Positions 5,659-62,788 are shown, numbered from the stretch's first letter. The stretch: 64,000 bases of DNA from an uncultured virus (IMG/VR IMGVR_UViG_3300046168_000009) (IMGVR_UViG_3300046168_000009), one strand, 5' to 3'. Program-made: numbers and translations. Notes: generated by a model not told the origin, from the sequence alone.

Positions 5659-7268
5659 ATGGCTATACAATATTGTGATTATGACATAAAAGGCACTTTA
5701 GCTGTGGCTGGAACCTCTACTTTATCAGGTATTGTTACTATAACTGAAGCTACTAGTAGTCCATTATTGAACATATATAACACATCAAACGGTAGTGGTG
5801 CTACTATTAGGTTTAGTGATCAAACAAGTCAAAGTCAAGTAGGTAATATAACATTTTATCATAGTGATGGATCATCACAAGGAGGAGGTGCTTCATGGCA
5901 TTTTGTAAGTGAGCCAGATACTGTTTTGGTAGTTGGTAGTGGTTCTGTTAATGGTAGATTTGTAGCTAAGTCTGCTGGTTCTGTAGGAGAAGTTGATTAT
6001 GGGTTTTATGACGATGTTAATACCGGTATGGTTAGAACTTCAGCTGACAATGTTTCATTAGTAGCAGGAGGAGTAGCTGGTATAGCAGTAGGTAGCACAG
6101 GAGATGTTACAGTTGGTAAAGACTTATACATACCAGAATACTTGTACCACACAGGGGATACAAACACGTATCTTCGTTTTCAAAGCGATTCAATTGAGTT
6201 GCAAACTGGAGGTTGGAAAGTTTTTGGTAATACAACTTTAAAATATGGTGCTTTATATGGTGATAATTCTCTTAGAGTTTATGCGACACAAGCTGGTGGG
6301 TATATAAATGGAACATTAACCGTTGACACTATAAATAATGCTACTTCAGATACTGATAAATTTTTAGTGTCTGATGGTGATGAAATTAAATATAGAACTG
6401 GTGCAGAGGTATTAGCAGATATAGGCGCTGGCACAGGCACAGTAACAGGATCAGGTAATAATAAACAGCTTGCTTTTTTTGATAGTGGTTCAAGTTAACC
6501 TCAAATAGCTCGTTTAAAGAGCTATCAACTGGAATTATATATGCTGAAAGATCATTTCGAGTTAAAGGAGTTGGGGGCGCTGATTTTTCGTCGGCGAGTG
6601 ATGATGACACAGGTTTAGGTTACTTTGATGGTGCTAACGGAGTAAGCCTTGTGAGTAAAGGTGCAAAAAATCTTACTGTAAAAGAAGGAACTATTGAGTT
6701 TGATACATATACTTCTACATCAGTTGCCACAACAGGAAGCTTAAATCCTAATCAAAACAGACAAGCACCATCTCAAGATACATTAGCAACTTTAGCTGTT
6801 GATCCAAGTGGTAATGTTGTAAGAGGTGAACAAGAAGGAACATGGACATTTACAAGAGCTCAATTAGACGCAACTTTAGGCCAAACTTTAATAGCAGCAC
6901 CAGGAGCAAACAAAGCAATTATAGTTACAGAATCTGATTGGATGGTGAAGTATAGTGCAACAGGATCTATGAGTGGTACTCAAACTTATGAAATAAGACA
7001 AGCAAATTTAGCACAAGCTAATGCTTCAGTATCAGTTTTACCTGCTTTAAGATTTAATGAGATAGTTAACCAGTCTCAATCAGGATCAGCTCCATTTTAT
7101 GGATTTTATACAAGAGATATACCTACTGGTTCTGGTTCTCAAGGTAGAACATATGCAGTTAACAAGGCTACTACTTTTCATAAACAAACAAGTTCACCAT
7201 ACCCAAGTGGGCTAACAAGTATATCTATAAAAATAAGATATAGAGTATTTGATGTTGATACTTTTTAA
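5659..7268 (+). CDS. tail fibre / receptor-binding protein (ORFs 5659..6498 and 6651..7268 joined across a 1-nt frameshift at about 6495)
   Basis: Frame of the second ORF is open from 6495 (LTSNSSFKELSTG...); fibre-like composition throughout. Confidence 0.65.
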
Positions 7269-7297
7269 GTAAATATGGTGTAAAACCAGTGATAATA
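7269..7297 (+). promoter_or_regulatory. class II promoter-like motif upstream of the chaperonin operon
   Basis: GTAAA-tatggtgtaaaacca-GTGATAATA, followed by hairpin TGCTC-ggtga-GAGCA (7308-7322). Confidence 0.65.
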
Positions 7298-7355
7298 CAA
7301 ATATACCTGCTCGGTGAGAGCAATAACCAAGTGTCTAACTTAAAAACCAAAACCA

Positions 7356-7646
7356 ATGACATTTTATTACCAGACTAGTTCGTGGAGTAGTCAACCACAA
7401 ATAACGGAAGAAACCAAACAAATTTGGGAACACATAGTTCAAAAGAAAAACTGGAGAATTGTACAGTTACCAAATGGATTTTACCAAACAGAATACCTTG
7501 ATCCAAAAAAAGAAGATTCATGGATCGATGTAACGAGACGCGAAACAATGGAAGGTGCTGAATCAGCAATAGACGCTTCTATTAACCATTATGAGAAAAA
7601 ATTAGCTCATACTCGCGGACCACAAGTCGTTAAAACTTTTAAATAA
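7356..7646 (+). CDS. hypothetical protein
   Basis: 96 aa ORF with A-rich leader, preceding groEL. Confidence 0.75.
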   Translation: MTFYYQTSSWSSQPQITEETKQIWEHIVQKKNWRIVQLPNGFYQTEYLDPKKEDSWIDVTRRETMEGAESAIDASINHYEKKLAHTRGPQVVKTFK

Positions 7647-7674
7647 AATAAATCAAATTAAATCTAATTAAATC

Positions 7675-9225
7675 ATGGCAGACGCTATAGTAAAAAATCT
7701 TAGTTTTGGAGACAAAGCTAAAGATAAAATATTTAAAGGAATTGAACAACTCACAAATGCTGTTAGCTCCACGCTTGGAGCTAGCGGTAAATGTGTTATA
7801 ATGGAAGATGACCAGGGTAATCCTGTCATAACAAAGGATGGTGTTACTGTCGCAAACTGTATAACACTGCACGATCCAATTGAAAATATGGGTGCAACTT
7901 TATTAAAGGGCGCAGCGAGAAAAACAGTTAATGAAGCTGGCGATGGAACAACTACAGCCACTGTATTAGCTCATGCTATACTAAGTGAAGCTCGTAGTAA
8001 AGACGTAAACACTAGAGAACTAAAAGAAGGTATAAATAAAGCTGTTGATAAAGTTGTTAAATATTTAGAATCAATAAGTATACCTGTCAAAGGTGACATG
8101 ATAGATGATATAGCAACTATATCAACCAACAATGATAAAGTTCTAGGTAAGTTAATAGGTGATGCTTTTAGAGAAGTAGGTGAAACAGGGATTGTGACAC
8201 TTGGTGTTTCTGAAAATGGAATAACAGAAACAGAGATAGTAGATGGTATAGAATACTACAAAGGTTATTGCCATCAAAACTTTATAACTGATAAAGAAAA
8301 AGGCACGGCAGAACTAGATAAACCGCTGGTTTTAATAATGGAATCAAAAGTAGAATCTATTAGACAAATACAACCCGTGTTAGAACATGTAATAAAAAAC
8401 AACAAACCATTACTTTTAATAGGCGAAGTTGATCCTACTGTTCTTTCTGCTTTAGTAATGAATAAAATGAAGGGTAATATTAAAGTAAACGTTGTAGACC
8501 CTCCGGCGTATGGCTTACGTAAAAAAGAAATACTAAATGATTTAGCATTACTTACAAATTCAACTATAATTAACGAGGATTTAGGTGATGATTTGAATGC
8601 AATACAAATAGATTATTTAGGTGAATGTGTAAAGTCAGTTTCTCAAGAAAATCAAACAGTAATTCAAGTAGAAGAAATACCTGAGGAAGCTAAAGATTTT
8701 ATAGAAAAAATTAAAAAAGATTTAAAAAAGAAAAACCCTGCACACGTTGTTGTTAATTTAGAAAGAAGATTAGCTACATTAAGTGCTAAAGTGGCTATAG
8801 TAAAAGTAGGTGCTTTTTCTGATGTAGAATTAAAAGAAAAAACAGATAGGGTCGAAGATGCTATATGTGCTACAAAAGCCGCTATAAAACAAGGTATAGT
8901 ACCAGGAGGTGGTATTGCTTTATTAAACGCTTCGTTGATAATAAAACCTAAAACAAAAGGTCAAAAAGTATTATTAGAAGCTATAAAGTCACCTTTTAAA
9001 ACTATACTTAAAAACGCTAATATTAAAGAACCGGATTTTAGTAAAAATGATGGTACTGGATTAAACGTGGTTACAGGAAAAATGGTAAATATGGTTGAGT
9101 CAGGGATTATTGATCCTTTGCTCGTAACTAAAAGCGCTTTGATTAACGCGGCTTCTGTGGCAACAACTATTCTTTCTACTGATTGTGTAATTAATAATAT
9201 GAGAATAGATGAAAGCACTAGGTAG
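7675..9225 (+). CDS. groEL: phage chaperonin GroEL (Cpn60)
   Basis: ITKDGVTVA, AGDGTTTATVLA, RVEDAICATKAA, GIVPGGG, GIIDP motifs; no GGM tail. Confidence 0.97.
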   Translation: MADAIVKNLSFGDKAKDKIFKGIEQLTNAVSSTLGASGKCVIMEDDQGNPVITKDGVTVANCITLHDPIENMGATLLKGAARKTVNEAGDGTTTATVLAHAILSEARSKDVNTRELKEGINKAVDKVVKYLESISIPVKGDMIDDIATISTNNDKVLGKLIGDAFREVGETGIVTLGVSENGITETEIVDGIEYYKGYCHQNFITDKEKGTAELDKPLVLIMESKVESIRQIQPVLEHVIKNNKPLLLIGEVDPTVLSALVMNKMKGNIKVNVVDPPAYGLRKKEILNDLALLTNSTIINEDLGDDLNAIQIDYLGECVKSVSQENQTVIQVEEIPEEAKDFIEKIKKDLKKKNPAHVVVNLERRLATLSAKVAIVKVGAFSDVELKEKTDRVEDAICATKAAIKQGIVPGGGIALLNASLIIKPKTKGQKVLLEAIKSPFKTILKNANIKEPDFSKNDGTGLNVVTGKMVNMVESGIIDPLLVTKSALINAASVATTILSTDCVINNMRIDESTR

Positions 9226-9469
9226 AAATTTAATTATAGAAAAGCTAGAAGATCAAATTCAAGAAACCGATGGTGGATTGCTTTTAGCGGAAATACACCG
9301 AGATGACATTAGATACTTAAAGGCTAAAATTATAAGTCTAGGTAATGATGTTGAAGGTGTTAAAAAAGAAGATATTATATTTTATGATAAGCACGCTGGT
9401 CATAAGATACAGAATAATAAAAAAATATATCACGTTATTAAGTCAACAGACGTGGTCGTTGTTTTGTGA
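9209..9469 (+). CDS. groES: co-chaperonin GroES (Cpn10)
   Basis: 86 aa, ETDGGLLL mobile loop, overlaps end of groEL. Confidence 0.9.
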   Translation: MKALGRNLIIEKLEDQIQETDGGLLLAEIHRDDIRYLKAKIISLGNDVEGVKKEDIIFYDKHAGHKIQNNKKIYHVIKSTDVVVVL

Positions 9470-48777: not shown

Positions 48778-48813
48778 GAAGGGGATCTCAAACGAGGTCC
48801 CCTTCATTGTTTT
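48778..48813. terminator. hairpin terminator between the convergent genome arms
   Basis: GAAGGGGATCTC-aaac-GAGGTCCCCTTC followed by attgttttt. Confidence 0.8.
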
Positions 48814-50531
48814 TATCCGTCACAGGCAATACAATCTTCACTCATAGCTTGTTGTGCTATATCACCTCTAAGCACTGATTCAGTTCTAGTATAATATAAA
48901 GTTTTAATACCTTTTTTCCATGCTTCAAAATGTACTTTGTTAATCCACTTTGGTGTTGCTATACTAGGAAAAGCCAGGTTCAAGCTAACAGACTGATCTA
49001 CATATTGCTGTCTCAGTCCAGCTTGATTAACTAATTCTAGTTGATTAATCTCCTTAAAAGTTTTAAATACCTCCTTTGCGGGTGTTTCGTGCGCCAACAC
49101 AACATCATCAAGCTCAGCAATATTTTGCACACTACCACCATCAGCCATGATCTTATCCCACGTTTCATTGTTATTTATTTTAAGTTTTCTAAGTAGTTTT
49201 ACTAGCGTCGGGTTTTTCCTAATGAAAGTCCCTTTTGCACTTTGCTCTGTAAAAACATTTGCAGCCCACGGCTCAATACCAGGCGAAACATTTCCACTAA
49301 GCTTACTATTGCTAACAGTAGGAGCAACAGCACGTAAATGAGTATTACGTAGACCAGTTCCAGAACACCACAAAGGTTCTCCGTAAGTTTCTGCAAGTGC
49401 CATACTAGCCCTTTCGCTTTCAATTTTAATCTGACTAAAGATTTTCCTAGTTTCAAACTGAGCAAGTAAACCTTCGAACGATATACCTTTTTCTTGTAGG
49501 TATGTGTGCCAGCCCAAAATTCCCAAGCCAAGCGCTCTTCCTTTCGTAGCTGACCTAACCGCGTTTTCAAAGCCTCGTAAGCCTTTAGCTCTTTGTATAA
49601 ATTCTTCCATGACCCCGTCAAGAAACCATATACTGTCGTAAATAAGGTTTGTGCCTTTCCACTCTTCATATTTTGCTAAATTTAATGATGATAAACAACA
49701 CACAAAACTATGATTCTCATCTGTATGTAGTGTTATTTCTGAACATATGTTAGTCATATGTACTTTTAATCCATTTTCTTTATAAGCTTTAGGATTCTTT
49801 TTGTTAACATTCCCTTTAAACATAATATACGGCTCGCCAGTTGATTTTCGCTTTCTAAGTAATTTACTCCATCTATTTCTAGCTGCAGCATCTCCTTGTT
49901 CAAGCTTACGCATAAACTTGTCACCAACAATTGCGCATTGATGTAAGTTAAGCGATTGTCTGTTAACATCTCCTTTAGGCTCTCTGATTTCAAGCCACTC
50001 TTCGAAATCGTCGTGTTCAATGTTAATATTAACTGATGCAGCTCCTCGTCTAACTGATCCTTGATTAGTTGCAAGGATTGTTGAGTCGTATATTTTGCAG
50101 AAAGGTACAACTCCGTCTGATGTTCCATTTCCTGTTATTCTAGCGCCGGCGGGTCTTATTTGATTTATACCGATACCAACTCCACCGCCGTGCTTAGCGA
50201 GTAGCATCATCTCTAAGTTTTTTTGTCCAATATCTTGTATAGAATCAGCCACATCGATACCAAAACAGCTAATAGGTAAGCCACGATCAGTACCTGTATT
50301 GGACAACACAGGACTAGCCAAGCAAAGCCAACCGTTCCAAATATAATCAAAAAAGGTCTGAGCCATTTCAGGCTTGTATAATCTTCTAGCCACAGTTTTA
50401 GCAACACGCATGTAAGCATCACGTGGCGTTTCATCTTGTAGTAAGTATCCACCAGATATTGTTTTTTTATAGACTTCTGTATTTCCCCATACTGGGTAGT
50501 CTTCTCCTTTAATCCATTCATTATTCCACAT
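48813..50531 (-). CDS. nrdA: class Ia ribonucleotide reductase alpha subunit
   Basis: PISCF, TNICSE, VCCLSS, APTVSNS, LYY, C-terminal CIACDG; likely start MWNNEW. Confidence 0.95.
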   Translation of the reverse strand: MWNNEWIKGEDYPVWGNTEVYKKTISGGYLLQDETPRDAYMRVAKTVARRLYKPEMAQTFFDYIWNGWLCLASPVLSNTGTDRGLPISCFGIDVADSIQDIGQKNLEMMLLAKHGGGVGIGINQIRPAGARITGNGTSDGVVPFCKIYDSTILATNQGSVRRGAASVNINIEHDDFEEWLEIREPKGDVNRQSLNLHQCAIVGDKFMRKLEQGDAAARNRWSKLLRKRKSTGEPYIMFKGNVNKKNPKAYKENGLKVHMTNICSEITLHTDENHSFVCCLSSLNLAKYEEWKGTNLIYDSIWFLDGVMEEFIQRAKGLRGFENAVRSATKGRALGLGILGWHTYLQEKGISFEGLLAQFETRKIFSQIKIESERASMALAETYGEPLWCSGTGLRNTHLRAVAPTVSNSKLSGNVSPGIEPWAANVFTEQSAKGTFIRKNPTLVKLLRKLKINNNETWDKIMADGGSVQNIAELDDVVLAHETPAKEVFKTFKEINQLELVNQAGLRQQYVDQSVSLNLAFPSIATPKWINKVHFEAWKKGIKTLYYTRTESVLRGDIAQQAMSEDCIACDG

Positions 50532-50740
50532 TATGAAAAATATAATATTATGTAGGCAATCGCTACGTTTAAATTTACAAACACTAAGTTCCACTGTTTA
50601 GCCACAAACACTTGAGGTATTGAAATAACACCTGCTATAATATATGTTATCATACCTCTCTCATCAGGTAATAAATGAGGACTAGTCATCATAAAAGCAG
50701 TTCCCATATACCCTAATCTATTGGCTAATCTTTCAGCCGG
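50531..50740 (-). CDS. small membrane protein
   Basis: Several hydrophobic segments; ORF track 50531..50809, likely start GTG at 50740. Confidence 0.55.
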   Translation of the reverse strand, partial: PAERLANRLGYMGTAFMMTSPHLLPDERGMITYIIAGVISIPQVFVAKQWNLVFVNLNVAIAYIILYFS

Positions 50741-50948
50741 ACTTAACTTCCTCTGTTTTACTAGGTTTTTCAACCACATCCTTTTTAAGCTCTTCGATTG
50801 CTTTTTCATACCCAGGCATTTTTTTAATTGTTTCTAATGTTCCTATTGCTAGGTCTTTTACTTGTGTTATTTCGTTAAGAAGATGCTGTGTCACCCTTAC
50901 AACCGCATCCATCTTGTTTTTCATCTCTATTAGTTTTGATTCTTTCAT
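50733..50948 (-). CDS. hypothetical protein
   Basis: 71 aa helical ORF. Confidence 0.65.
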   Translation of the reverse strand: MKESKLIEMKNKMDAVVRVTQHLLNEITQVKDLAIGTLETIKKMPGYEKAIEELKKDVVEKPSKTEEVKSG

Positions 50949-51594
50949 GTGGTTTTAATATTTTGTTACTTAATACAAATTTGTTTTTTGCGTTTTTAAA
51001 TCCATGAAATGCTACTTGCCTAGGTCCTACTAGTTTTTTTAACTTGTAAAACATAACTAACACTTCTCTGCTTTCTTTAAATTCATTAGGATATTTGCTA
51101 TGAAAATAATTACAAGGATAGGATATTAGTCTATTTTGTTTGTGGCCTATAACAGACTTTAAATCCCATTTTGATGTATCATTAGAATCAGACATTAAAA
51201 GCTTGTTAAAGTCATCTGTAGAACCTCCTGGGTATGTATCTCCAAGATCTTTATGAGACCAAAAAGCTGTACCGTTTAATTCTTTGTTTTTATTTTTAGA
51301 CAAATATAGAACTATAGCTTTCTCAGGTTGTTGGCCTTCTATTATCGTGTCATTATGTATACGCCAGTCATTATCTTGCCCTTCTTTAGCTTGTCTAAAA
51401 AAACATAATATATTTTCAACTTGTCTATTTTCTATATATGATATTTTATTTACCATGTAATCTACTAAAAGGCTGTGAGGTTCTTTTACCCAAAAAGATT
51501 TACCAGGAGTTTTTACCTCCTGATAATCTCTATTATCTAACAACAATGTGTCTAAAAGTTCTTTTTCTAAAAAATTATCTTCTATGTAAATCAT
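50875..51594 (-). CDS. 2OG-Fe(II) oxygenase-like protein
   Basis: IHND (HxD), IVLYLS, GTAFW, NRLISYP..YFH, R..LVMF. Confidence 0.75.
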   Translation of the reverse strand: MIYIEDNFLEKELLDTLLLDNRDYQEVKTPGKSFWVKEPHSLLVDYMVNKISYIENRQVENILCFFRQAKEGQDNDWRIHNDTIIEGQQPEKAIVLYLSKNKNKELNGTAFWSHKDLGDTYPGGSTDDFNKLLMSDSNDTSKWDLKSVIGHKQNRLISYPCNYFHSKYPNEFKESREVLVMFYKLKKLVGPRQVAFHGFKNAKNKFVLSNKILKPHERIKTNRDEKQDGCGCKGDTASS

Positions 51595-51679: not shown

Positions 51680-52648
51680 TTACCAAATGTCTTCGAAGTC
51701 TTCTCCTTCATTAGCTTTTGAGTAATCAGTCGGCCTAATAGCGAAAAAATCAGTATGAGTGACGCCCCCGGTAAGATGATAAAACCAATCAAGATTAGCT
51801 GCTGCTTCCTGGTCATACGAGAAATATGATCCAAGATCGATATAACCAAGTTCTGTAAGTTTTTCATTTGTTCTTTTTCTTATAAATTGTTTTAAGTCAT
51901 TTGCTTTAATGCCTTCAATGTCACCCATCTCAAACATTTTATCTATATACTTTTCTTCTAAAGTTACCATAGCTTCTGCAGCCGTAATTACATCTGCTCT
52001 ACAATCAGCTAATAAAAACGCATCCTCTTGGCACATGTGCTTAAACAATTGACAACCCATTTTACTGTGTAAGCTTTCATCTCTTACAGACCATTTCATT
52101 TGTTGCCCGATACCCTTAAGTAGATTTCGAAGCTGAAAACTATACAACACTGCAAAAGCACTATACAAGCTAACTCCTTCAGCGAAGGCTGAAAATACAG
52201 CCAAGCTTTTCGCAATGCCAACAGTATTATTACCGTCGTAAGCAACCAAATTATCAAATCTTTCAGCCGTTGCTGGTTCATGAAGAAATGCTTCATAGTC
52301 TTCTAGTTTTAAAGTTTCATTTAAATAGCTATATGCTACAGCGTGTACAGTTTCCTGCGATCCAAACATCATAGCCATTTGTTGTATTTCGTGTTTAGGA
52401 AACCAACCAACTACCTTCTGTGTCCAGTAATCAGAAACCGCGCACTCCGTCTGCGCGAAGCCGAGCAATATATTGCCGACCAAATTCTTTTCTTTATCAT
52501 TTAATTTTTCTTTCCAATCTTTTATATCACTCTGCATTGAGATTTCAGTATGTAACCAAAATGCTTGTGCTTGTTTTAACCAACCTTCTGTATAATACTC
52601 AGGATAATCAAATGGTTTGTACGCTATGCGCTCATCAAATAATCCCAT
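51680..52648 (-). CDS. nrdB: ribonucleotide reductase beta subunit
   Basis: QETVHAVAYS, AEGVSLYSAF, VRDESLH, TDFF. Confidence 0.95.
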   Translation of the reverse strand: MGLFDERIAYKPFDYPEYYTEGWLKQAQAFWLHTEISMQSDIKDWKEKLNDKEKNLVGNILLGFAQTECAVSDYWTQKVVGWFPKHEIQQMAMMFGSQETVHAVAYSYLNETLKLEDYEAFLHEPATAERFDNLVAYDGNNTVGIAKSLAVFSAFAEGVSLYSAFAVLYSFQLRNLLKGIGQQMKWSVRDESLHSKMGCQLFKHMCQEDAFLLADCRADVITAAEAMVTLEEKYIDKMFEMGDIEGIKANDLKQFIRKRTNEKLTELGYIDLGSYFSYDQEAAANLDWFYHLTGGVTHTDFFAIRPTDYSKANEGEDFEDIW

Positions 52649-52794: not shown

Positions 52795-52960
52795 AGCATT
52801 TTATTCCATGTTTATTTTGTATCTCTACAAGCTCTTTGTAGATAACTTTATTCCTGTTTTCAAAACTCCATTTCCACCACGTATCTATTTTACGTTCAGC
52901 GTATTTTTGTCTTGCAATTACTTTCGCGAGGTTAGGATTAACCTTATTGTTTCGTCGCAT
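52787..52960 (-). CDS. small hypothetical protein (57 aa)
   Basis: MRRNNKVNPNLAKVIARQKY...; overlaps both neighbours. Confidence 0.5.
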   Translation of the reverse strand: MRRNNKVNPNLAKVIARQKYAERKIDTWWKWSFENRNKVIYKELVEIQNKHGIKCYG

Positions 52961-53373
52961 TCTTTTTGATTTTGTGGTTTGTATAACGTAAAAGGACCTA
53001 TTTTACTTTCTGACATTAGCTTTTTAAACATTTTCCATCTAAGTGGAAATGATTCATTTGCTCGGCCTTTGGTTTCTATTATAAAACCTTTACCTACAAA
53101 ATCAGGTGTATATTTTATATTAAGTATTTTTTTATTACCTCTGTTTTTATAATCACCTTTACCATTTCCACAACGTTCAAACGATTCAAATGGAAAATCA
53201 AAAGCTTCTTGAAGTTCAAATGTTTCTCCCTCATACAAAGCTTTGATCTTAGCTTTTTTTAAAGCCATATACATATAACGTTCTAAACCTGACGCAAAAG
53301 TTATACCATCATATGATATTTTTTTTGACTGTACTGGTCCACGTTTTTTCTTTTTATAAAACTTTTTCATCAT
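52918..53373 (-). CDS. PD-(D/E)XK endonuclease (T7 endonuclease I-like)
   Basis: FASGLE, YTPDF, IIETKG motifs. Confidence 0.85.
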   Translation of the reverse strand: MMKKFYKKKKRGPVQSKKISYDGITFASGLERYMYMALKKAKIKALYEGETFELQEAFDFPFESFERCGNGKGDYKNRGNKKILNIKYTPDFVGKGFIIETKGRANESFPLRWKMFKKLMSESKIGPFTLYKPQNQKECDETIRLILTSRK

Positions 53374-53662
53374 TGACTTCTATATAATGTAAACCATCAT
53401 TTCCGTTTTGACCTATTACATTCATACGATTAAGCATTGCCTCTTCTATTTCATCAGTTAAACAACGTTTAGCTGCTTCAATATATAATAATGCATCCAT
53501 CAGCTCTTCTTGTACGTCAACTAAAAAACGATTAAGGTCTTTTTTCTGACCTTCTATTTCGTCCATCATTGTAGCTCCATATTTCTTTTGACCTATTAAA
53601 CTACGTTCGTCCATCTTCCTTAGTACAGTTTGTACTATCTTATCTTCAGTTCTAATTTTCAT
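53354..53662 (-). CDS. all-alpha nucleotide pyrophosphohydrolase-like protein
   Basis: G.KKYG and QEELMDALLY motifs. Confidence 0.6.
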   Translation of the reverse strand: MKIRTEDKIVQTVLRKMDERSLIGQKKYGATMMDEIEGQKKDLNRFLVDVQEELMDALLYIEAAKRCLTDEIEEAMLNRMNVIGQNGNDGLHYIEVNDEKVL

Positions 53663-54428
53663 CTTTTACAAATGTTCCGTTAATCATTTTACCTGTACGT
53701 GCTGATATTTCAGTATAAGCAGAATCAATACAGTCTTCAATAGACATACCTTCCAGCTCTGCTAAATTAGTTAATACAACAACCATATCGCCTACAGCGT
53801 CTTGTATTTCAGGTTTATCTTTGTTAAGTAAAGCTTTAGCTAACTCACCAGCTTCTTCCATAAGCTTAACATATTGTGTGTGTGAATTACCTCCATCATA
53901 TATACCTCTAACTAATGCCCAGTTTCTAATAAGATCAAATCTTTCACAATCTAAATTATTAGATATACATTTATTAGGATTATGTTTAGGATTAAAATAA
54001 GCTTCATAAAAAGCTTTATTATAAATATAAGATCTATCACTGTTAAACATAGATGTTTTTACGTTTTGCATAATCCATTTAATGTTCTCTTTTGTTATTT
54101 CAAACTGGCCGAACTCTGTTTTCCACGTTAAACCAATGTTATCCGCTAATCTGCCTTTTAATTTGTTGACAGGCACAGGGAATGTTGAGGTTTGTTCTGT
54201 TGCGTTTATTTTCATTTGATTAAATAATTGTTTATATAATTTTCTATCTTTCTTATAGCCATAAGACTGTTGAAGCTCTATTTCGCGGTCTGATATATAA
54301 TCTATATCATCTGACTGCTCAAGAACTTCATACTCATTCTCCTTGTATCCTTGCACAAGGGTTACCCTGTTATTAAGATCACGTGTAACACCGATCTTTT
54401 TACCTGGTATGTGGTATAAATAATACAT
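53652..54428 (-). CDS. mazG: MazG-like pyrophosphohydrolase with N-terminal GIY-YIG-like domain
   Basis: C-terminal KLMEEAGELA...DAVGDMVVVL; N-terminal YYLYHI..KKIGVTRDL..R; likely start ATG54428. Confidence 0.75.
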   Translation of the reverse strand: MYYLYHIPGKKIGVTRDLNNRVTLVQGYKENEYEVLEQSDDIDYISDREIELQQSYGYKKDRKLYKQLFNQMKINATEQTSTFPVPVNKLKGRLADNIGLTWKTEFGQFEITKENIKWIMQNVKTSMFNSDRSYIYNKAFYEAYFNPKHNPNKCISNNLDCERFDLIRNWALVRGIYDGGNSHTQYVKLMEEAGELAKALLNKDKPEIQDAVGDMVVVLTNLAELEGMSIEDCIDSAYTEISARTGKMINGTFVKDEN

Positions 54429-54432
54429 ATTT

Positions 54433-55074
54433 TTAAAGTTTATCGTTATATAAGTGCATGTTATGTGCATGGTGATAATACCACCCTGTTTCTAAATTCA
54501 ATCTGTCTGCAATCATTTTTTGCAATGATGAGAATTGGTATTGATCATTACAGAAACCGTACCAGATGTCATTAGAACGCATATAAACAGACATATTTAG
54601 TTTATCATTTAGTATTGTAAATTGAACCGCGTAAGTACAAGGAGTATCTTTAGAATATTTATCGTATTCTTTAGCATCATAAATACTTATTGCAGCGTGT
54701 CTAGTATTAGGATTATCTTTTAGTTTAGCCACAACATAATCTATTTGATTGTTTCTTTTCCACTGATAACCATAGTTACTATTTACATTACCGTTGCTAT
54801 CAGCCATGCGTTCCCATATAGGAGGTATTTTACCATATAGTTGACCTAACTTAATTATATTAGGATCTCCAGACAAGTACCATTGCCATTCAGCTTCAGC
54901 ATATTTTAAACTCCAATTACGTTGTTTGTTTGTTATGTGATTCTCTTGTGGATTCATAATATAAAAACCACAATTAAACAAAGCTTTAGTATTGTCAAAA
55001 TCTTCTCCATGTTGAATGGTTTGATCTAATAAAAACTCGTATGCTTCGTTTGCGTTTTTAAATCTTGCGTTCAT
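54433..55074 (-). CDS. thymidylate-synthase-fold enzyme, probable dCMP (hydroxy)methylase
   Basis: DTPCTYAVQF, VYMRSNDIWYGFCND (Asp at the ThyA Asn177 position), H.YN. Confidence 0.8.
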   Translation of the reverse strand: MNARFKNANEAYEFLLDQTIQHGEDFDNTKALFNCGFYIMNPQENHITNKQRNWSLKYAEAEWQWYLSGDPNIIKLGQLYGKIPPIWERMADSNGNVNSNYGYQWKRNNQIDYVVAKLKDNPNTRHAAISIYDAKEYDKYSKDTPCTYAVQFTILNDKLNMSVYMRSNDIWYGFCNDQYQFSSLQKMIADRLNLETGWYYHHAHNMHLYNDKL

Positions 55075-55312
55075 ATTTATTATAATAGTATTTATAAAAT
55101 TCGTATAGTTTAATCCATATGGTTGTTGGGCCATATGCTTCTGGTGATCTATTTATCTTGCCACCATTGTTGATCTCTATATACCAGCTCCCGTTCCCAG
55201 TCGCGAATGGGGATATAAATATCTTGTTCCTTATACACCAAATATATGCCTTCATGTCCTCCGAGGACTGCGTATATAGACCCATCGTGTTCTTTTGTTT
55301 TTTTGCTGGCAT
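55058..55312 (-). CDS. hypothetical protein
   Basis: 84 aa, coupled to neighbours. Confidence 0.65.
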   Translation of the reverse strand: MPAKKQKNTMGLYTQSSEDMKAYIWCIRNKIFISPFATGNGSWYIEINNGGKINRSPEAYGPTTIWIKLYEFYKYYYNKYERKI

Positions 55313-57037
55313 TTATTCCCATGGCATTGGTTCGTTGTTAATACCTATTGGTTCGTGAGGTATAAAACAACCTGATTTATGTTCCCATTTAAAATGTGCT
55401 TCAGCGCCGTTTTCACCAAGGTTTTGAAACTTAACTTTTAGCACTTTAGCTTTAACTGTTTTAGCATCATAATCTCTATGAACTAATATACCGTGATAAC
55501 TAGCGTCATACCATTCGCCGCCACCTTTAATGTTGTACATCGTTGGTTCTTCCATCTTACCATCTTTGTCTTTATACATTTTAGTTGGATGCGCTACTAT
55601 AAATACTAACACATCAAACTTTTTTGCAAATACTTCTATTTTAGTTAAGTATTCCATTGTGTATCGGTTAACATCTTCTGTTTTACAATCAACGTCTCTT
55701 ACTTTATTAAACGGATCTATAACTAGGCATTTAATACCTTTACGTTTAACAAGCTCAGCTCCTTTTCGCAACACAGATTCTAGTGTGTAACGCTCCATAT
55801 CAATGTGAAAATAGTTAGTATTACAATGATCAGCTATTTGATTCCATTTGTCACCATGTATATCTGCTGCTGTTGGCATACCTTCCCAGGTTTTACGCAT
55901 TAATTTGTGAGCATGAAGATACGTCGGCGCATTCTCTGGCGATGCAAAAGCCGTCTTCCAACCGTAGTTACGATTATACCCGACAACCATTTGATCAACG
56001 AAGTCTGATTTACCGCTACTAGGTATACCAGTGACAGTAATAAATTGACCGGTATAAGTAGAAAATATGTCGTCAAAATTGGATAAACCAACTTGATATC
56101 CTTTCTTAAAGCCATTACGGACAAAGTCAGTAACCTCATCTTCAATATCCTTGAATGTTGTAACATTTTCGAGTGGTACGGGTCTCGCGGAGGTAATACG
56201 CTGTACCAGTTTTTCTTTGCCATGTTTCTGTAAGTATTCATTAGCATCTTTACAGTCATCAAACGTCGCTAGATAACAAACCTCAGCTCCAAGTCTACGG
56301 ACTAATTCTGATTGTAACGCTTGCCCTGCCTCATCTGAATCAACTGCTAGTATGATTTTTTCTTTGTCTTCAAAGTAATCAATACAGTTATCAAGATAAT
56401 CTAAATTGTTATTGTTTAATGTTGCGCCATTAGGTACAGATATAACATTTGGTATACCAGCCTCATGTAGTGCTAACACATCCATTTCGCCTTCAGTTAT
56501 AATACAATACTCATAACCTACTATACTATTTATATTATAGAACACTTTTTCAGCACCCTTATATAATTTAAAGTTTTTTCTGCCATCGCGATACTTAACA
56601 TTAATAAGTTGATCGCCCATGAAATAATTGAACTTTATTGTGTTCTCAGACTTACCGGTTTGCGGCATATACTCAGCACCCTCGCTGATTTCTAAATCAT
56701 AAAGGGTCTGAGTTCCTATACCTCTTGCTTTAAACCATTCAATTACCTTGTCGCTTAAAAACTCAGGATATTCAGTATCACTAGGTGGACCAATGGGTCT
56801 TACATATTCTTTTTCGCTAGCTCCTTTACGTTGATAAGTATGTAATTGAAATGATGTATTACAATTATGACAAGTTCCGAGACCCCGTTCCCAATCATAA
56901 GACGCACATTTTGCCTTTTGATTCTTGGGTTTTCTATCGTGAGAACAAAGCGGGCATACACCTTGCTTTTTTCCCTCTTCAAGCTTATATTGATTGAATT
57001 CATCAATCAAGAATCCATTGATCTCTATTGTCTGCAT
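55313..57037 (-). CDS. bifunctional primase-helicase (T7 gp4/Twinkle-like)
   Basis: CPLC..CHNC zinc finger, TEGEMD and DSD TOPRIM, TGIPSSGKS Walker A, LVIDP, VAHP. Confidence 0.95.
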   Translation of the reverse strand: MQTIEINGFLIDEFNQYKLEEGKKQGVCPLCSHDRKPKNQKAKCASYDWERGLGTCHNCNTSFQLHTYQRKGASEKEYVRPIGPPSDTEYPEFLSDKVIEWFKARGIGTQTLYDLEISEGAEYMPQTGKSENTIKFNYFMGDQLINVKYRDGRKNFKLYKGAEKVFYNINSIVGYEYCIITEGEMDVLALHEAGIPNVISVPNGATLNNNNLDYLDNCIDYFEDKEKIILAVDSDEAGQALQSELVRRLGAEVCYLATFDDCKDANEYLQKHGKEKLVQRITSARPVPLENVTTFKDIEDEVTDFVRNGFKKGYQVGLSNFDDIFSTYTGQFITVTGIPSSGKSDFVDQMVVGYNRNYGWKTAFASPENAPTYLHAHKLMRKTWEGMPTAADIHGDKWNQIADHCNTNYFHIDMERYTLESVLRKGAELVKRKGIKCLVIDPFNKVRDVDCKTEDVNRYTMEYLTKIEVFAKKFDVLVFIVAHPTKMYKDKDGKMEEPTMYNIKGGGEWYDASYHGILVHRDYDAKTVKAKVLKVKFQNLGENGAEAHFKWEHKSGCFIPHEPIGINNEPMPWE

Positions 57038-58883: not shown

Positions 58884-59639
58884 CTACAGATAATCAAGCA
58901 CTTGCGAGTGATCAACATTATCTATTAATTTTTGTACTGCTTGTCTTTTTAACTGTGATATTCTAACATATGCGCTACTACCTTTTATATCTAATATCTT
59001 AGCTATACTTTTAGCATCATGCTTATCACAATCTAAGCCGTAGCTTAATCTTAATACTTCATATTCTTTTGTATCTAAATATTTAGCCATTAAACTTTTT
59101 AAATATAAATTTAATAACTGCATGTTATACGGCTCTGATTTATCTGGTATTTGATAAGCCATATTGTCGTCGTCTGTTGGTTTATCATCTATACTTAAAA
59201 ATATAGAATTAAAAAACATTGCAACCATTTTTTTGTCTTTGCCAAAGTTCTTACGTATCTCATTTAGCTTATGCTCAGGTATACGTATATCACCTCTGTT
59301 AATATCAATAGCTCTACGTATCGCACCTCTTATTCTTTTAGATAAAAAAGACTTAAGAGTTTTTTCTTGATCTTCTGATTCTTTTAATGTTTGATAATCT
59401 AACCTGTCTACTGCTTGTGTTAAACCTGCACAACCATCTTGTATTAAGTCCATTATAGTCATAACACGCAGAGAGCTTGTTGAGTGTTGAAAATTTTCTA
59501 GATTTTCTACTAAGGCATAATATTAAAGATTAATTCATCTTTTTGTAGATAGTAAATCACCAATCTACAACTTCTGGAGATTGCTATATAGAACTTAATC
59601 TTCTTTTATCTAATATAGTTTTTATATTATATTCTTCAT
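58884..59639 (-). CDS. phage sigma-70 family factor (5' part broken by frameshifts; intact ORF 58884..59462)
   Basis: DLIQDG..GLTQAVD, RIRGAIRRAI..IRIP (region 2), VLRLSYGL..IAKIL..RISQLK..A.QKL (region 4). Confidence 0.85.
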
Positions 59640-60235
59640 TTAGTATATTTTTTTCTTTTTTAATTGTTTATTTAATTTCTATAATTGTTCTTTTAGAACA
59701 TTAAGTAATCCAGCTACTTCCCCATGTTATTTTCTTACTGTCCGTTTAAGATCTAACATGATTGATAAATAAGCTCTTCATCAACTCGTGATGATCTACT
59801 ATTAATTTACCTACAATACTTAGTTTTTCCTTATAGTTAACCGTATAGGTTAAATACTACTTTACGTATTTTGTTACAGGTGGTTCACCACCTTTTAAAC
59901 ACATCTTCTATCATATCATTTAATATTTTCTTTTTAATAAAAAATGTAACAAAACCATTTTCTTTATCAGCTATAAATCTAAACATGTGTTCCATTAATA
60001 ATGGATTACCATGTGGTATATCTTCATTGAGATAATATAAAACAAGCATGTGCCACTTTAATGATTTATACGTAGTTATCTTAGCCTTACTATTAAATAA
60101 GTGATAACATTGATATGTACCATTAGCGTAGTATTTATATTGTTTGGTTTCAATAGTAGGTATATCAGTATCAGGATCTTTCCTATATACGATGCGTCTA
60201 TCATTTAACCATTTTATATTTCTTTCGTATGACAT
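59640..60235 (-). CDS. putative DNA-binding/replication protein with C-terminal HTH (3' half frameshifted)
   Basis: ORF 59885..60235 continues in broken frames ending ...EVAGLLKCSKRTI..; coordinates of the broken part approximate. Confidence 0.5.
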
Positions 60236-62701: not shown

Positions 62702-62715
62702 ATTATTTTAATTAG

Positions 62716-62788
62716 GTGCGCAGGGTGGATTCGAACCACCGACCTCTAGCTTATGAGGCTAGCGAGCTACCAACTGCTCTACCGCGCA
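62716..62788 (-). tRNA. tRNA with CAU anticodon (Met or Ile2)
   Basis: TGCGCGG-TA-GAGC-AGTTGGTA-GCTC-G-CTAGC-CTCATAA-GCTAG-AGGTC-GGTGG-TTCGAAT-CCACC-CTGCGCA-C; full cloverleaf, no encoded CCA. Confidence 0.93.

Follow-up and report, generated by a model that had tools for sequence, protein, structure and literature searches.

The uncultured virus analysed here carries, under the name of thymidylate synthase, a gene that we predict to encode a dCMP 5-hydroxymethylase; among its relatives this slot appears to have been swapped repeatedly between the predicted hydroxymethylase and a predicted 5-methyl-dCMP synthase, and a nearby 102-aa orphan gene is matched to whichever type is present. Read as a full multi-step cassette, these genes make it likely that the phage replaces cytosine with unglycosylated 5-hydroxymethylcytosine and so escapes restriction. 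The core of this is a known strategy; what is added here is the repeated exchange between hydroxymethylase and methylase types and the orphan that is matched to them. The window—the whole stretch of DNA that was analysed, 64,000 nucleotides—covers 64,000 of the 64,488 bases of record IMGVR_UViG_3300046168_000009, and positions are counted from its first letter:

55313..57037, minus strand: primase-helicase, the anchor gene for comparisons (profile/database search)
55058..55312, minus strand: 84-aa conserved gene between primase and synthase (77/80 closest synthase-anchored loci; no family found)
54433..55074, minus strand: predicted dCMP 5-hydroxymethylase, 213 aa, thymidylate-synthase fold (PF00303, E 8.6e-30)
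54646..54648, minus strand: codon of Asp143, the acid that activates water, at position -3 from Cys146 (ThyA and the methylase-type relatives have Leu)
54544..54546, minus strand: GAT codon of Asp177, the cytosine selector (Asn in ThyA; direct read)
53652..54428, minus strand: MazG fusion, with a GIY-YIG/T5orf172-like N-terminus, a middle domain and a C-terminal MazG pyrophosphohydrolase (PF03819, E 4.8e-6)
53354..53662, minus strand: orphan 102-aa two-helix protein, RSxxGxxKYG...QEELMD, with co-switching Glu35, Lys41, Phe46 and Asp49
52918..53373, minus strand: DUF1064/Holliday-junction-resolvase-like endonuclease, a fixed neighbour that does not track synthase type
51680..52648, minus strand: ribonucleotide reductase small subunit (NrdB), downstream in the same strand block (profile search)
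48813-50594: ribonucleotide reductase large subunit ORF (profile search)

The major capsid protein of the window is 48% identical to that of the uncultured spring phage MW202828 and 39%, 36% and 25% identical to those of Elemovirus, Callevirus and Baltivirus, respectively, and one tail protein contains a crAss muzzle domain; from these capsid and tail relatives we infer a Flavobacteriia-type host. The stretch occurs, whole or in part, in 20 public runs from 15 studies, with run labels of marine or viral metagenomes. Parts of the cassette are also covered by contigs from two RNA libraries, a kind of evidence that cannot show transcription.

The synthase ORF, read from the ATG at 55074, encodes 213 aa and contains both motifs that an earlier note on this DNA had read there, DTPCTYAVQF (with Cys146) and VYMRSNDIWYGFCND; the Asp codon that the note placed at 54544-54546 is likewise present and aligns to Asp179 of T4 gp42 and to the Asn column of E. 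coli-type enzymes. Among the closest IMG/VR loci anchored on the synthase, which were found with six search patterns, none including residue 177, Asp177 occurs in 80/80, and a close synthase is encoded by 567 IMG/VR stretches. Alignment to solved structures pairs Glu62 of the window enzyme with Glu60 of T4 gp42, Ser99/Tyr101 with Ser94/Tyr96, Asp143 with Asp145, Cys146 with Cys148, Thr147 with Thr149, and Asp177 with Asp179; Asp169 is also present, and the protein ends four residues after HLY, that is, without the C-terminal tail of ThyA. At the positions of MilA Lys133/Ala176 the window enzyme has Arg125 and Ser167, letters of the deoxy type that indicate a preference for deoxyribose. In published work on these positions, Asp145 with Ser94/Tyr96 is given as the hydroxymethylation signature and Lys133/Ala176 as ribo-selecting (PMC6400193), Asp177 together with position 147 as best separating modified from unmodified contigs (PMC8670742, section 11), and Asp169Asn as the mark of 5-hydroxy-dCMP synthases (PMC13326640, section 28).

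The structure model of the synthase (pLDDT 89) had its best Foldseek matches in the CMP 5-hydroxymethylase MilA (PDB 5jnh, 5b6d; E 2e-19, TM 0.91, with equivalents of Asp143 and Asp177) and then in T4 gp42 (PDB 1b49, 1b5d, 6a9a; TM-score 0.79). Because ThyA scores close behind both, and whole-sequence scores barely split hydroxymethylases from ThyA (E 2e-19 vs 4e-18), the assignment rests on residues rather than scores. MilA differs in its ribo-selecting pair, and the window enzyme sits in a phage replication context. T4 gp42 shares the catalytic and specificity residues, the missing tail and a pyrophosphatase nearby, although the window enzyme is only about 26% identical to it and 33 residues shorter. 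The hallmarks of a T4 gp42-type dCMP hydroxymethylase—Cys, Glu, Asp177, Asp143 with Ser-x-Tyr, no tail, and the fold—are all present. The dCMP specificity claimed earlier is well supported by Asp177 and the T4 gp42-type residue set, and a residue-by-residue comparison with ThyA and T4 gp42 came out on the side of T4 gp42. Where the earlier note had left the product as hydroxymethyl or methyl, Asp143, Ser99/Tyr101 and the missing tail favour the former and speak against the latter, and we regard that question, for the predicted window enzyme, as settled by sequence in favour of hydroxymethyl.

Three other identities were considered and rejected. A ThyA would carry Asn177, Leu143, His147 and a C-terminal tail, where the window enzyme has Asp, Asp, Thr and none, and it scores 84.8 bits against an NCBIfam cut-off of 327. 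A 5-hydroxy-dCMP synthase of the RB69/DLP3 type is opposed by Asp169, which is kept and not replaced by Asn, and a 5-methyl-dCMP synthase by Asp143, which is not hydrophobic, and again by the missing ThyA tail.

With the primase as an anchor independent of the synthase, the best 80 of 379 relatives have a thymidylate-synthase-fold gene two genes downstream in 80/80 loci: 53 short hydroxymethylase-type genes and 27 long methylase-type genes, the latter 23-28% identical to the window enzyme. Among the short type, D143/T147/D169/D177 was read in 50/53 loci, the motif search having failed on three (ORFs of 52, 195 and 224 aa), and 48/53 end four to five residues after HLY. All 27 long-type synthases instead have Leu143, His/Tyr147, Asp169 and Asp177 and retain a tail, 26-70 residues long; a dCMP methylase should look like this, and they are predicted 5-methyl-dCMP synthases. 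No Asn-type enzyme was found in the 77 of these best 80 loci with a readable motif. Mapped onto the 79-row primase tree, synthase type requires no fewer than 8 changes, compared with 22.5 in shuffles (minimum 17), and an AU test over 26 of the 79 rows, chosen after the primase tree was seen, rejects a single long-type clade (p 5e-5). These trees indicate that the synthase gene is swapped repeatedly between the two types in this slot. About a third of the primase-anchored loci hold the predicted 5-methyl-dCMP synthase together with a His-type orphan partner. The 27 long-type relatives fit the 5-methyl-dCMP synthase strategy of ThyA Asn-to-Asp mutants and of phage Xp12, whose enzyme we take to have this role; the window enzyme is of the other type. 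Xp12 DNA is reported to contain 100% 5mC (PMC7653180). A few short-type synthases (L203, L250 and L256) read GFCID, not GFCND, and L203 has its orphan immediately behind the synthase, ahead of MazG.

The orphan gene is real and conserved, being present in 75/80 of the closest synthase-anchored loci, a count in which contig ends are not separated from true absence. On FastTree gene trees, synthase type changes once on the orphan tree, compared with 8 times on the primase tree, 6 on that of the upstream 84-aa gene, 7, 14 and 14 on trees of the N-terminal, middle and catalytic parts of the MazG fusion, and 14 on both the endonuclease and NrdB trees. The single change on the orphan tree, set against 14 for the MazG catalytic part, implies that orphan and synthase keep their pairing although the gene between them recombines freely. 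When orphan-anchored loci were added, the set grew to 145 sequences, which reduce to 116 distinct cores. Next to a short synthase the core carries Glu35, Lys41, Phe/Tyr46 and Asp49 and a loop four residues longer in 89/89 cases; next to a long one it carries Asp, a deletion, Trp and His at those positions in 27/27. The match persists when the N-terminal backbone differs (the tree of that part shows 2 changes), independent synthase/orphan pairs agree in 6/6 cases (p 0.03), and the orphans readable in synthase-anchored loci, which overlap the other orphan sets, are Asp-type in 75/75. The seven homologues known from other cultured phages all have His, and so His is probably the general form of the orphan and Asp the hydroxymethyl-linked form. 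A search of two of their genomes gave no PF00303 gene; elemoC and snusmum have a His-form homologue and no PF00303 gene, and homologues without a synthase also occur in G011 and MW202828. The covariation indicates a functional link between the orphan and the chemistry of the synthase product; it is the first functional clue obtained here to this family of orphan phage proteins (3,873 representatives at E 0.001) and names residues to probe.

The orphan is modelled as all-helical, with helices at 8-37 and 43-85 (pTM 0.42), and its invariant features are R-S, K-Y and E-E-x-x-D, with one acidic QEExMD motif and no clear second one. Against a MazG profile it gave no significant match (hhalign probability 0.7%), its similarity to mammalian dCTP pyrophosphatase 1 (DCTPP1) is a faint QEELxD (E 0.97), fold searches with the two-helix model returned only generic helices and one phage homologue, and a Pfam scan of 30 homologues gave only weak unrelated matches. 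The earlier view of two nucleotide pyrophosphatases beside the synthase thus survives in its first half: the MazG domain is there (PF03819), while no test placed the second gene among the all-alpha pyrophosphohydrolases. The downstream gene described as MazG-type does carry that domain, but at the C-terminus of a fusion with a GIY-YIG-like N-terminus.

The likely start of the fusion gene is 54428. Its acidic motifs EExGE...ExxD are invariant in 5/5 aligned sequences, the domain matches PDB 1vmg (E 6e-8) and PF03819 above cut-off, and it does not follow synthase type, as its 14 changes show. Residues 15-165 resemble T5orf172/GIY-YIG clusters with scores of 0.95-0.98, to be taken as a lead only; the atlas look-alikes carry PF10544 on 11-48% of their members, and the N-terminus itself has no Pfam match.

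Four orphan-anchored loci belong to unrelated small phages in which orphan, accessory gene, short synthase and a stand-alone MazG of 97-117 aa stand in a row, which indicates that orphan, synthase and MazG travel together into unrelated phages. The accessory gene of L213, inserted in the cassette, is a T4 alpha-glucosyltransferase (PF11440, E 6.8e-15), that of L234 weakly resembles a beta-glucosyltransferase (PF09198 below cut-off, E 5e-4), and that of L236 has no family match. Since sugar transfer needs a hydroxyl, these glucosyltransferases support 5hmC as the product of the synthase family. In L230 (G043, 6001-7958), a class I SAM methyltransferase lies between orphan and hydroxymethylase and is a candidate maker of a methylated 5hmC derivative. 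The orphan of L234 (5044-6616) forms a fusion with a cytidylyltransferase-like domain (PF01467) and precedes the weak T4 beta-glucosyltransferase match.

The closest cultured homologue of the synthase is BF486P2_00032 of Bacteroides phage BF486P2 (43% identity), located near a carbamoyltransferase, and modified-cytosine contigs of Yang et al. 2021 are described as carrying an Asp177 synthase together with PF01503-type pyrophosphohydrolase domains (PMC8670742). Both differ from the window, where the carbamoyltransferase is absent, and BF486P2 encodes an N-terminal P-loop protein and nothing that matches the orphan or the MazG. The BF486P2 cluster (L081:14653-20681) comprises two thymidylate-synthase-fold genes, a carbamoyltransferase, a P-loop kinase-like gene and a dUTPase, and its second synthase-fold gene reads RSSD and LLPYD. 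In the literature searched, mostly outside subscription journals, we found no paper on the cassette of this clade or on the orphan family, and no description of the type exchange or of an orphan matched to it.

The T4 system has the dCTPase gp56, the dNMP kinase gp1, glucosyltransferases and the polymerase gp43, and of these the kinase, polymerase and glucosyltransferase were not found here. The partner in the window is instead a MazG domain fused to a GIY-YIG-like domain, plus the orphan, and a methylase-type gene can take the place of the synthase. No polymerase, kinase, deaminase or glycosyltransferase was found among the large ORFs of the window, a scan in which very divergent enzymes could be missed, and none of these families among 108 representative ORFs of at most 450 aa from 11 near-complete genomes, taken from clusters in at least 3 genomes or of at least 120 aa and exclusive of the relatives' large ORFs. 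Family A polymerase (PF00476) was found in 0/5 complete relatives. The statement that the window shows no DNA polymerase or glycosyltransferase accordingly holds, both there and in complete relatives, and covers nearly the whole record, given the 64,000 of 64,488 bases. The only Walker A motif common to all 11 genomes is that of the helicase; the complete G042 has no P-loop motif beyond helicase and terminase; PF02223 was found in 0/5 of the four unrelated cassette carriers and BF486P2, and DHFR in 0/5 methylase-type genomes. The kinase step is the main gap in the proposed pathway, and a related synthase without its phage kinase is reported to give only trace modification in E. coli (PMC13326640). 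The dNMP kinase of Bacteroidota hosts may be a different one, a point relevant to this missing step. Of 14 control genomes, Bacteroides thetaiotaomicron was the only one without PF02223 thymidylate kinase.

Sequence composition bears on incorporation into DNA. In 11/11 synthase-bearing clade genomes every 4-bp palindrome stands at o/e of at least 0.43, while 10/12 synthase-less comparison phages, five of the 12 read over their first 60 kb only, have some 4-bp palindrome at 0.2 or below; most of the Elemovirus, Callevirus (both Pervagoviridae) and Baltivirus (Pachyviridae) podophages of Flavobacteriia, which have a related capsid and no PF00303 gene in the records searched, near-completely lose some 4-bp sites. 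For C-containing palindromes, o/e is 0.87-0.95 in the 11 synthase-bearing and 0.60-0.87 in the 12 synthase-less genomes, and A/T-only palindromes differ less (1.00 vs 0.95). Of 512 5-mers, GGATG shows the strongest depletion in six hydroxymethylase-type genomes (0.38-0.55, mean 0.47), compared with 0.65-0.84 in five long-type genomes, and FokI and BtsCI, which recognise it, are listed as cutting 5hmC but not 5mC DNA (PMC7653180 Table S1); independent pairs, however, show no dependence of GGATG on type (median p 1), and it is also low in 2/12 synthase-less phages. The GATC depletion predicted for methylase-type genomes was not seen there (1.01-1.18), several C-containing 6-mers remain depleted in the window, and three of five unrelated carriers still miss sites (G042 CTAG 0.05; G045 GATC 0.15; BF486P2 CTAG 0.0 and GATC 0.05). 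CpG was not used because genomes with and without a synthase cannot be told apart by its depletion (p 0.64). With ancestry and host as confounders, groups that are not independent, a failed GATC prediction and unrelated carriers that lack sites, composition lends weak support.

In the reading that we favour, the synthase would convert dCMP and methylene-THF to 5hm-dCMP, as its residue signature suggests and as shown for T4 gp42, and the MazG domain would most probably break dCTP down to dCMP, which would both clear the normal base and supply the synthase. Host DNA that lacks the modification may be a target for cleavage by the GIY-YIG-like domain of the fusion. Host kinases and the host DNA polymerase would finish the pathway, phage genes for these steps being absent from the scans. 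The orphan would be a nucleotide-sanitising enzyme, whose ancestral His form would suit phages with canonical or 5-methyl-C and whose Asp form would handle a hydroxymethylated nucleotide, for example the deamination product 5hm-dUTP: deamination of 5-methyl-dCMP yields harmless dTMP, whereas that of 5hm-dCMP is not harmless. We hold this role only tentatively, although it is the most probable of the orphan readings considered.

An orphan that destroys dCTP and spares modified dCTP, with MazG in general housekeeping, comes near the view of the earlier note, and would explain why the orphan and not MazG tracks synthase type; the faint resemblance to DCTPP1 (E about 1) points the same way. The methylase-linked His form also occurs in phages without PF00303 (elemoC, snusmum; G011 and MW202828 likewise carry homologues and lack a synthase), where a dCTPase would be harmful, so that plain dCTP purging by the orphan is doubtful and we consider this account unlikely. 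Much the same standing belongs to a non-catalytic orphan that binds the synthase or a host kinase, its covariation marking an interface: strict covariation, the 0.7% hhalign probability and the single acidic motif would suit an adaptor, but homologues exist without any synthase, and the invariant residues look catalytic. A bolder proposal has the orphan itself fill the kinase step: the modified dCMP would receive a pyrophosphoryl group donated by a dNTP, perhaps dCTP, so that a single reaction would form 5hm-dCTP and remove dCTP. Covariation with product type, the absence of a kinase from 11 clade genomes and complete G042, and the reverse pattern in BF486P2 (a kinase-like gene and no orphan) are all consistent with it, yet His-type homologues in synthase-less phages make it quite improbable; were it correct, the cassette would achieve kinase-free, polymerase-free base replacement with a product-specific pocket.

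Other accounts concern the fate or identity of the synthase product. The enzyme might make 5hm-dCMP of which little reaches DNA, giving partial replacement or a reshaped nucleotide pool, for instance against nucleotide-depleting defences. Such an outcome would fit the lack of a phage kinase or polymerase in 11 genomes, the kinase dependence reported for related synthases (PMC13326640), the residual depletion of C-containing 6-mers and the site avoidance in 3/5 unrelated carriers; it is made rather unlikely by glucosyltransferase-like genes in the same cassette elsewhere, which imply hmC in DNA, and by the 11/11 clade genomes in which no 4-bp site is wiped out. Least probable is an unusual thymidylate synthase or dUMP hydroxymethylase in a phage whose DNA has normal cytosine. 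The database name, the position beside nrdAB like that of a nucleotide-supply gene, and the lack of another dTMP synthase in the record would suit that identity, against which stand the ThyA features and score missing from the window enzyme and the alternative slot gene, which also has Asp177 (27/27). If replacement of cytosine by 5-hydroxymethylcytosine is correct, a widespread marine phage lineage has modified cytosine under a 'thyA' label, 5hmC and 5mC are swapped repeatedly within a single slot, as an arms race against modification-dependent restriction would lead one to expect, and base replacement is achieved with only a host polymerase and host kinases.

Several further features of the window were noted. 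Between nrdB and nrdA lies a DUF6445 protein (50875-51594, minus strand), present in 6/80 synthase-anchored loci, whose HxD...H pattern may mark an iron-dependent oxygenase. A sigma-factor-like ORF (58884-60235, minus strand) is 192 aa long, compared with about 250 in relatives, and the ORF next to it 116 compared with about 205; both look truncated or frameshifted. GroEL and GroES genes (7675-9469, plus strand) are core in all six genomes compared, and a single tRNA-Met (CAT) gene lies at 62715-62788 on the minus strand.
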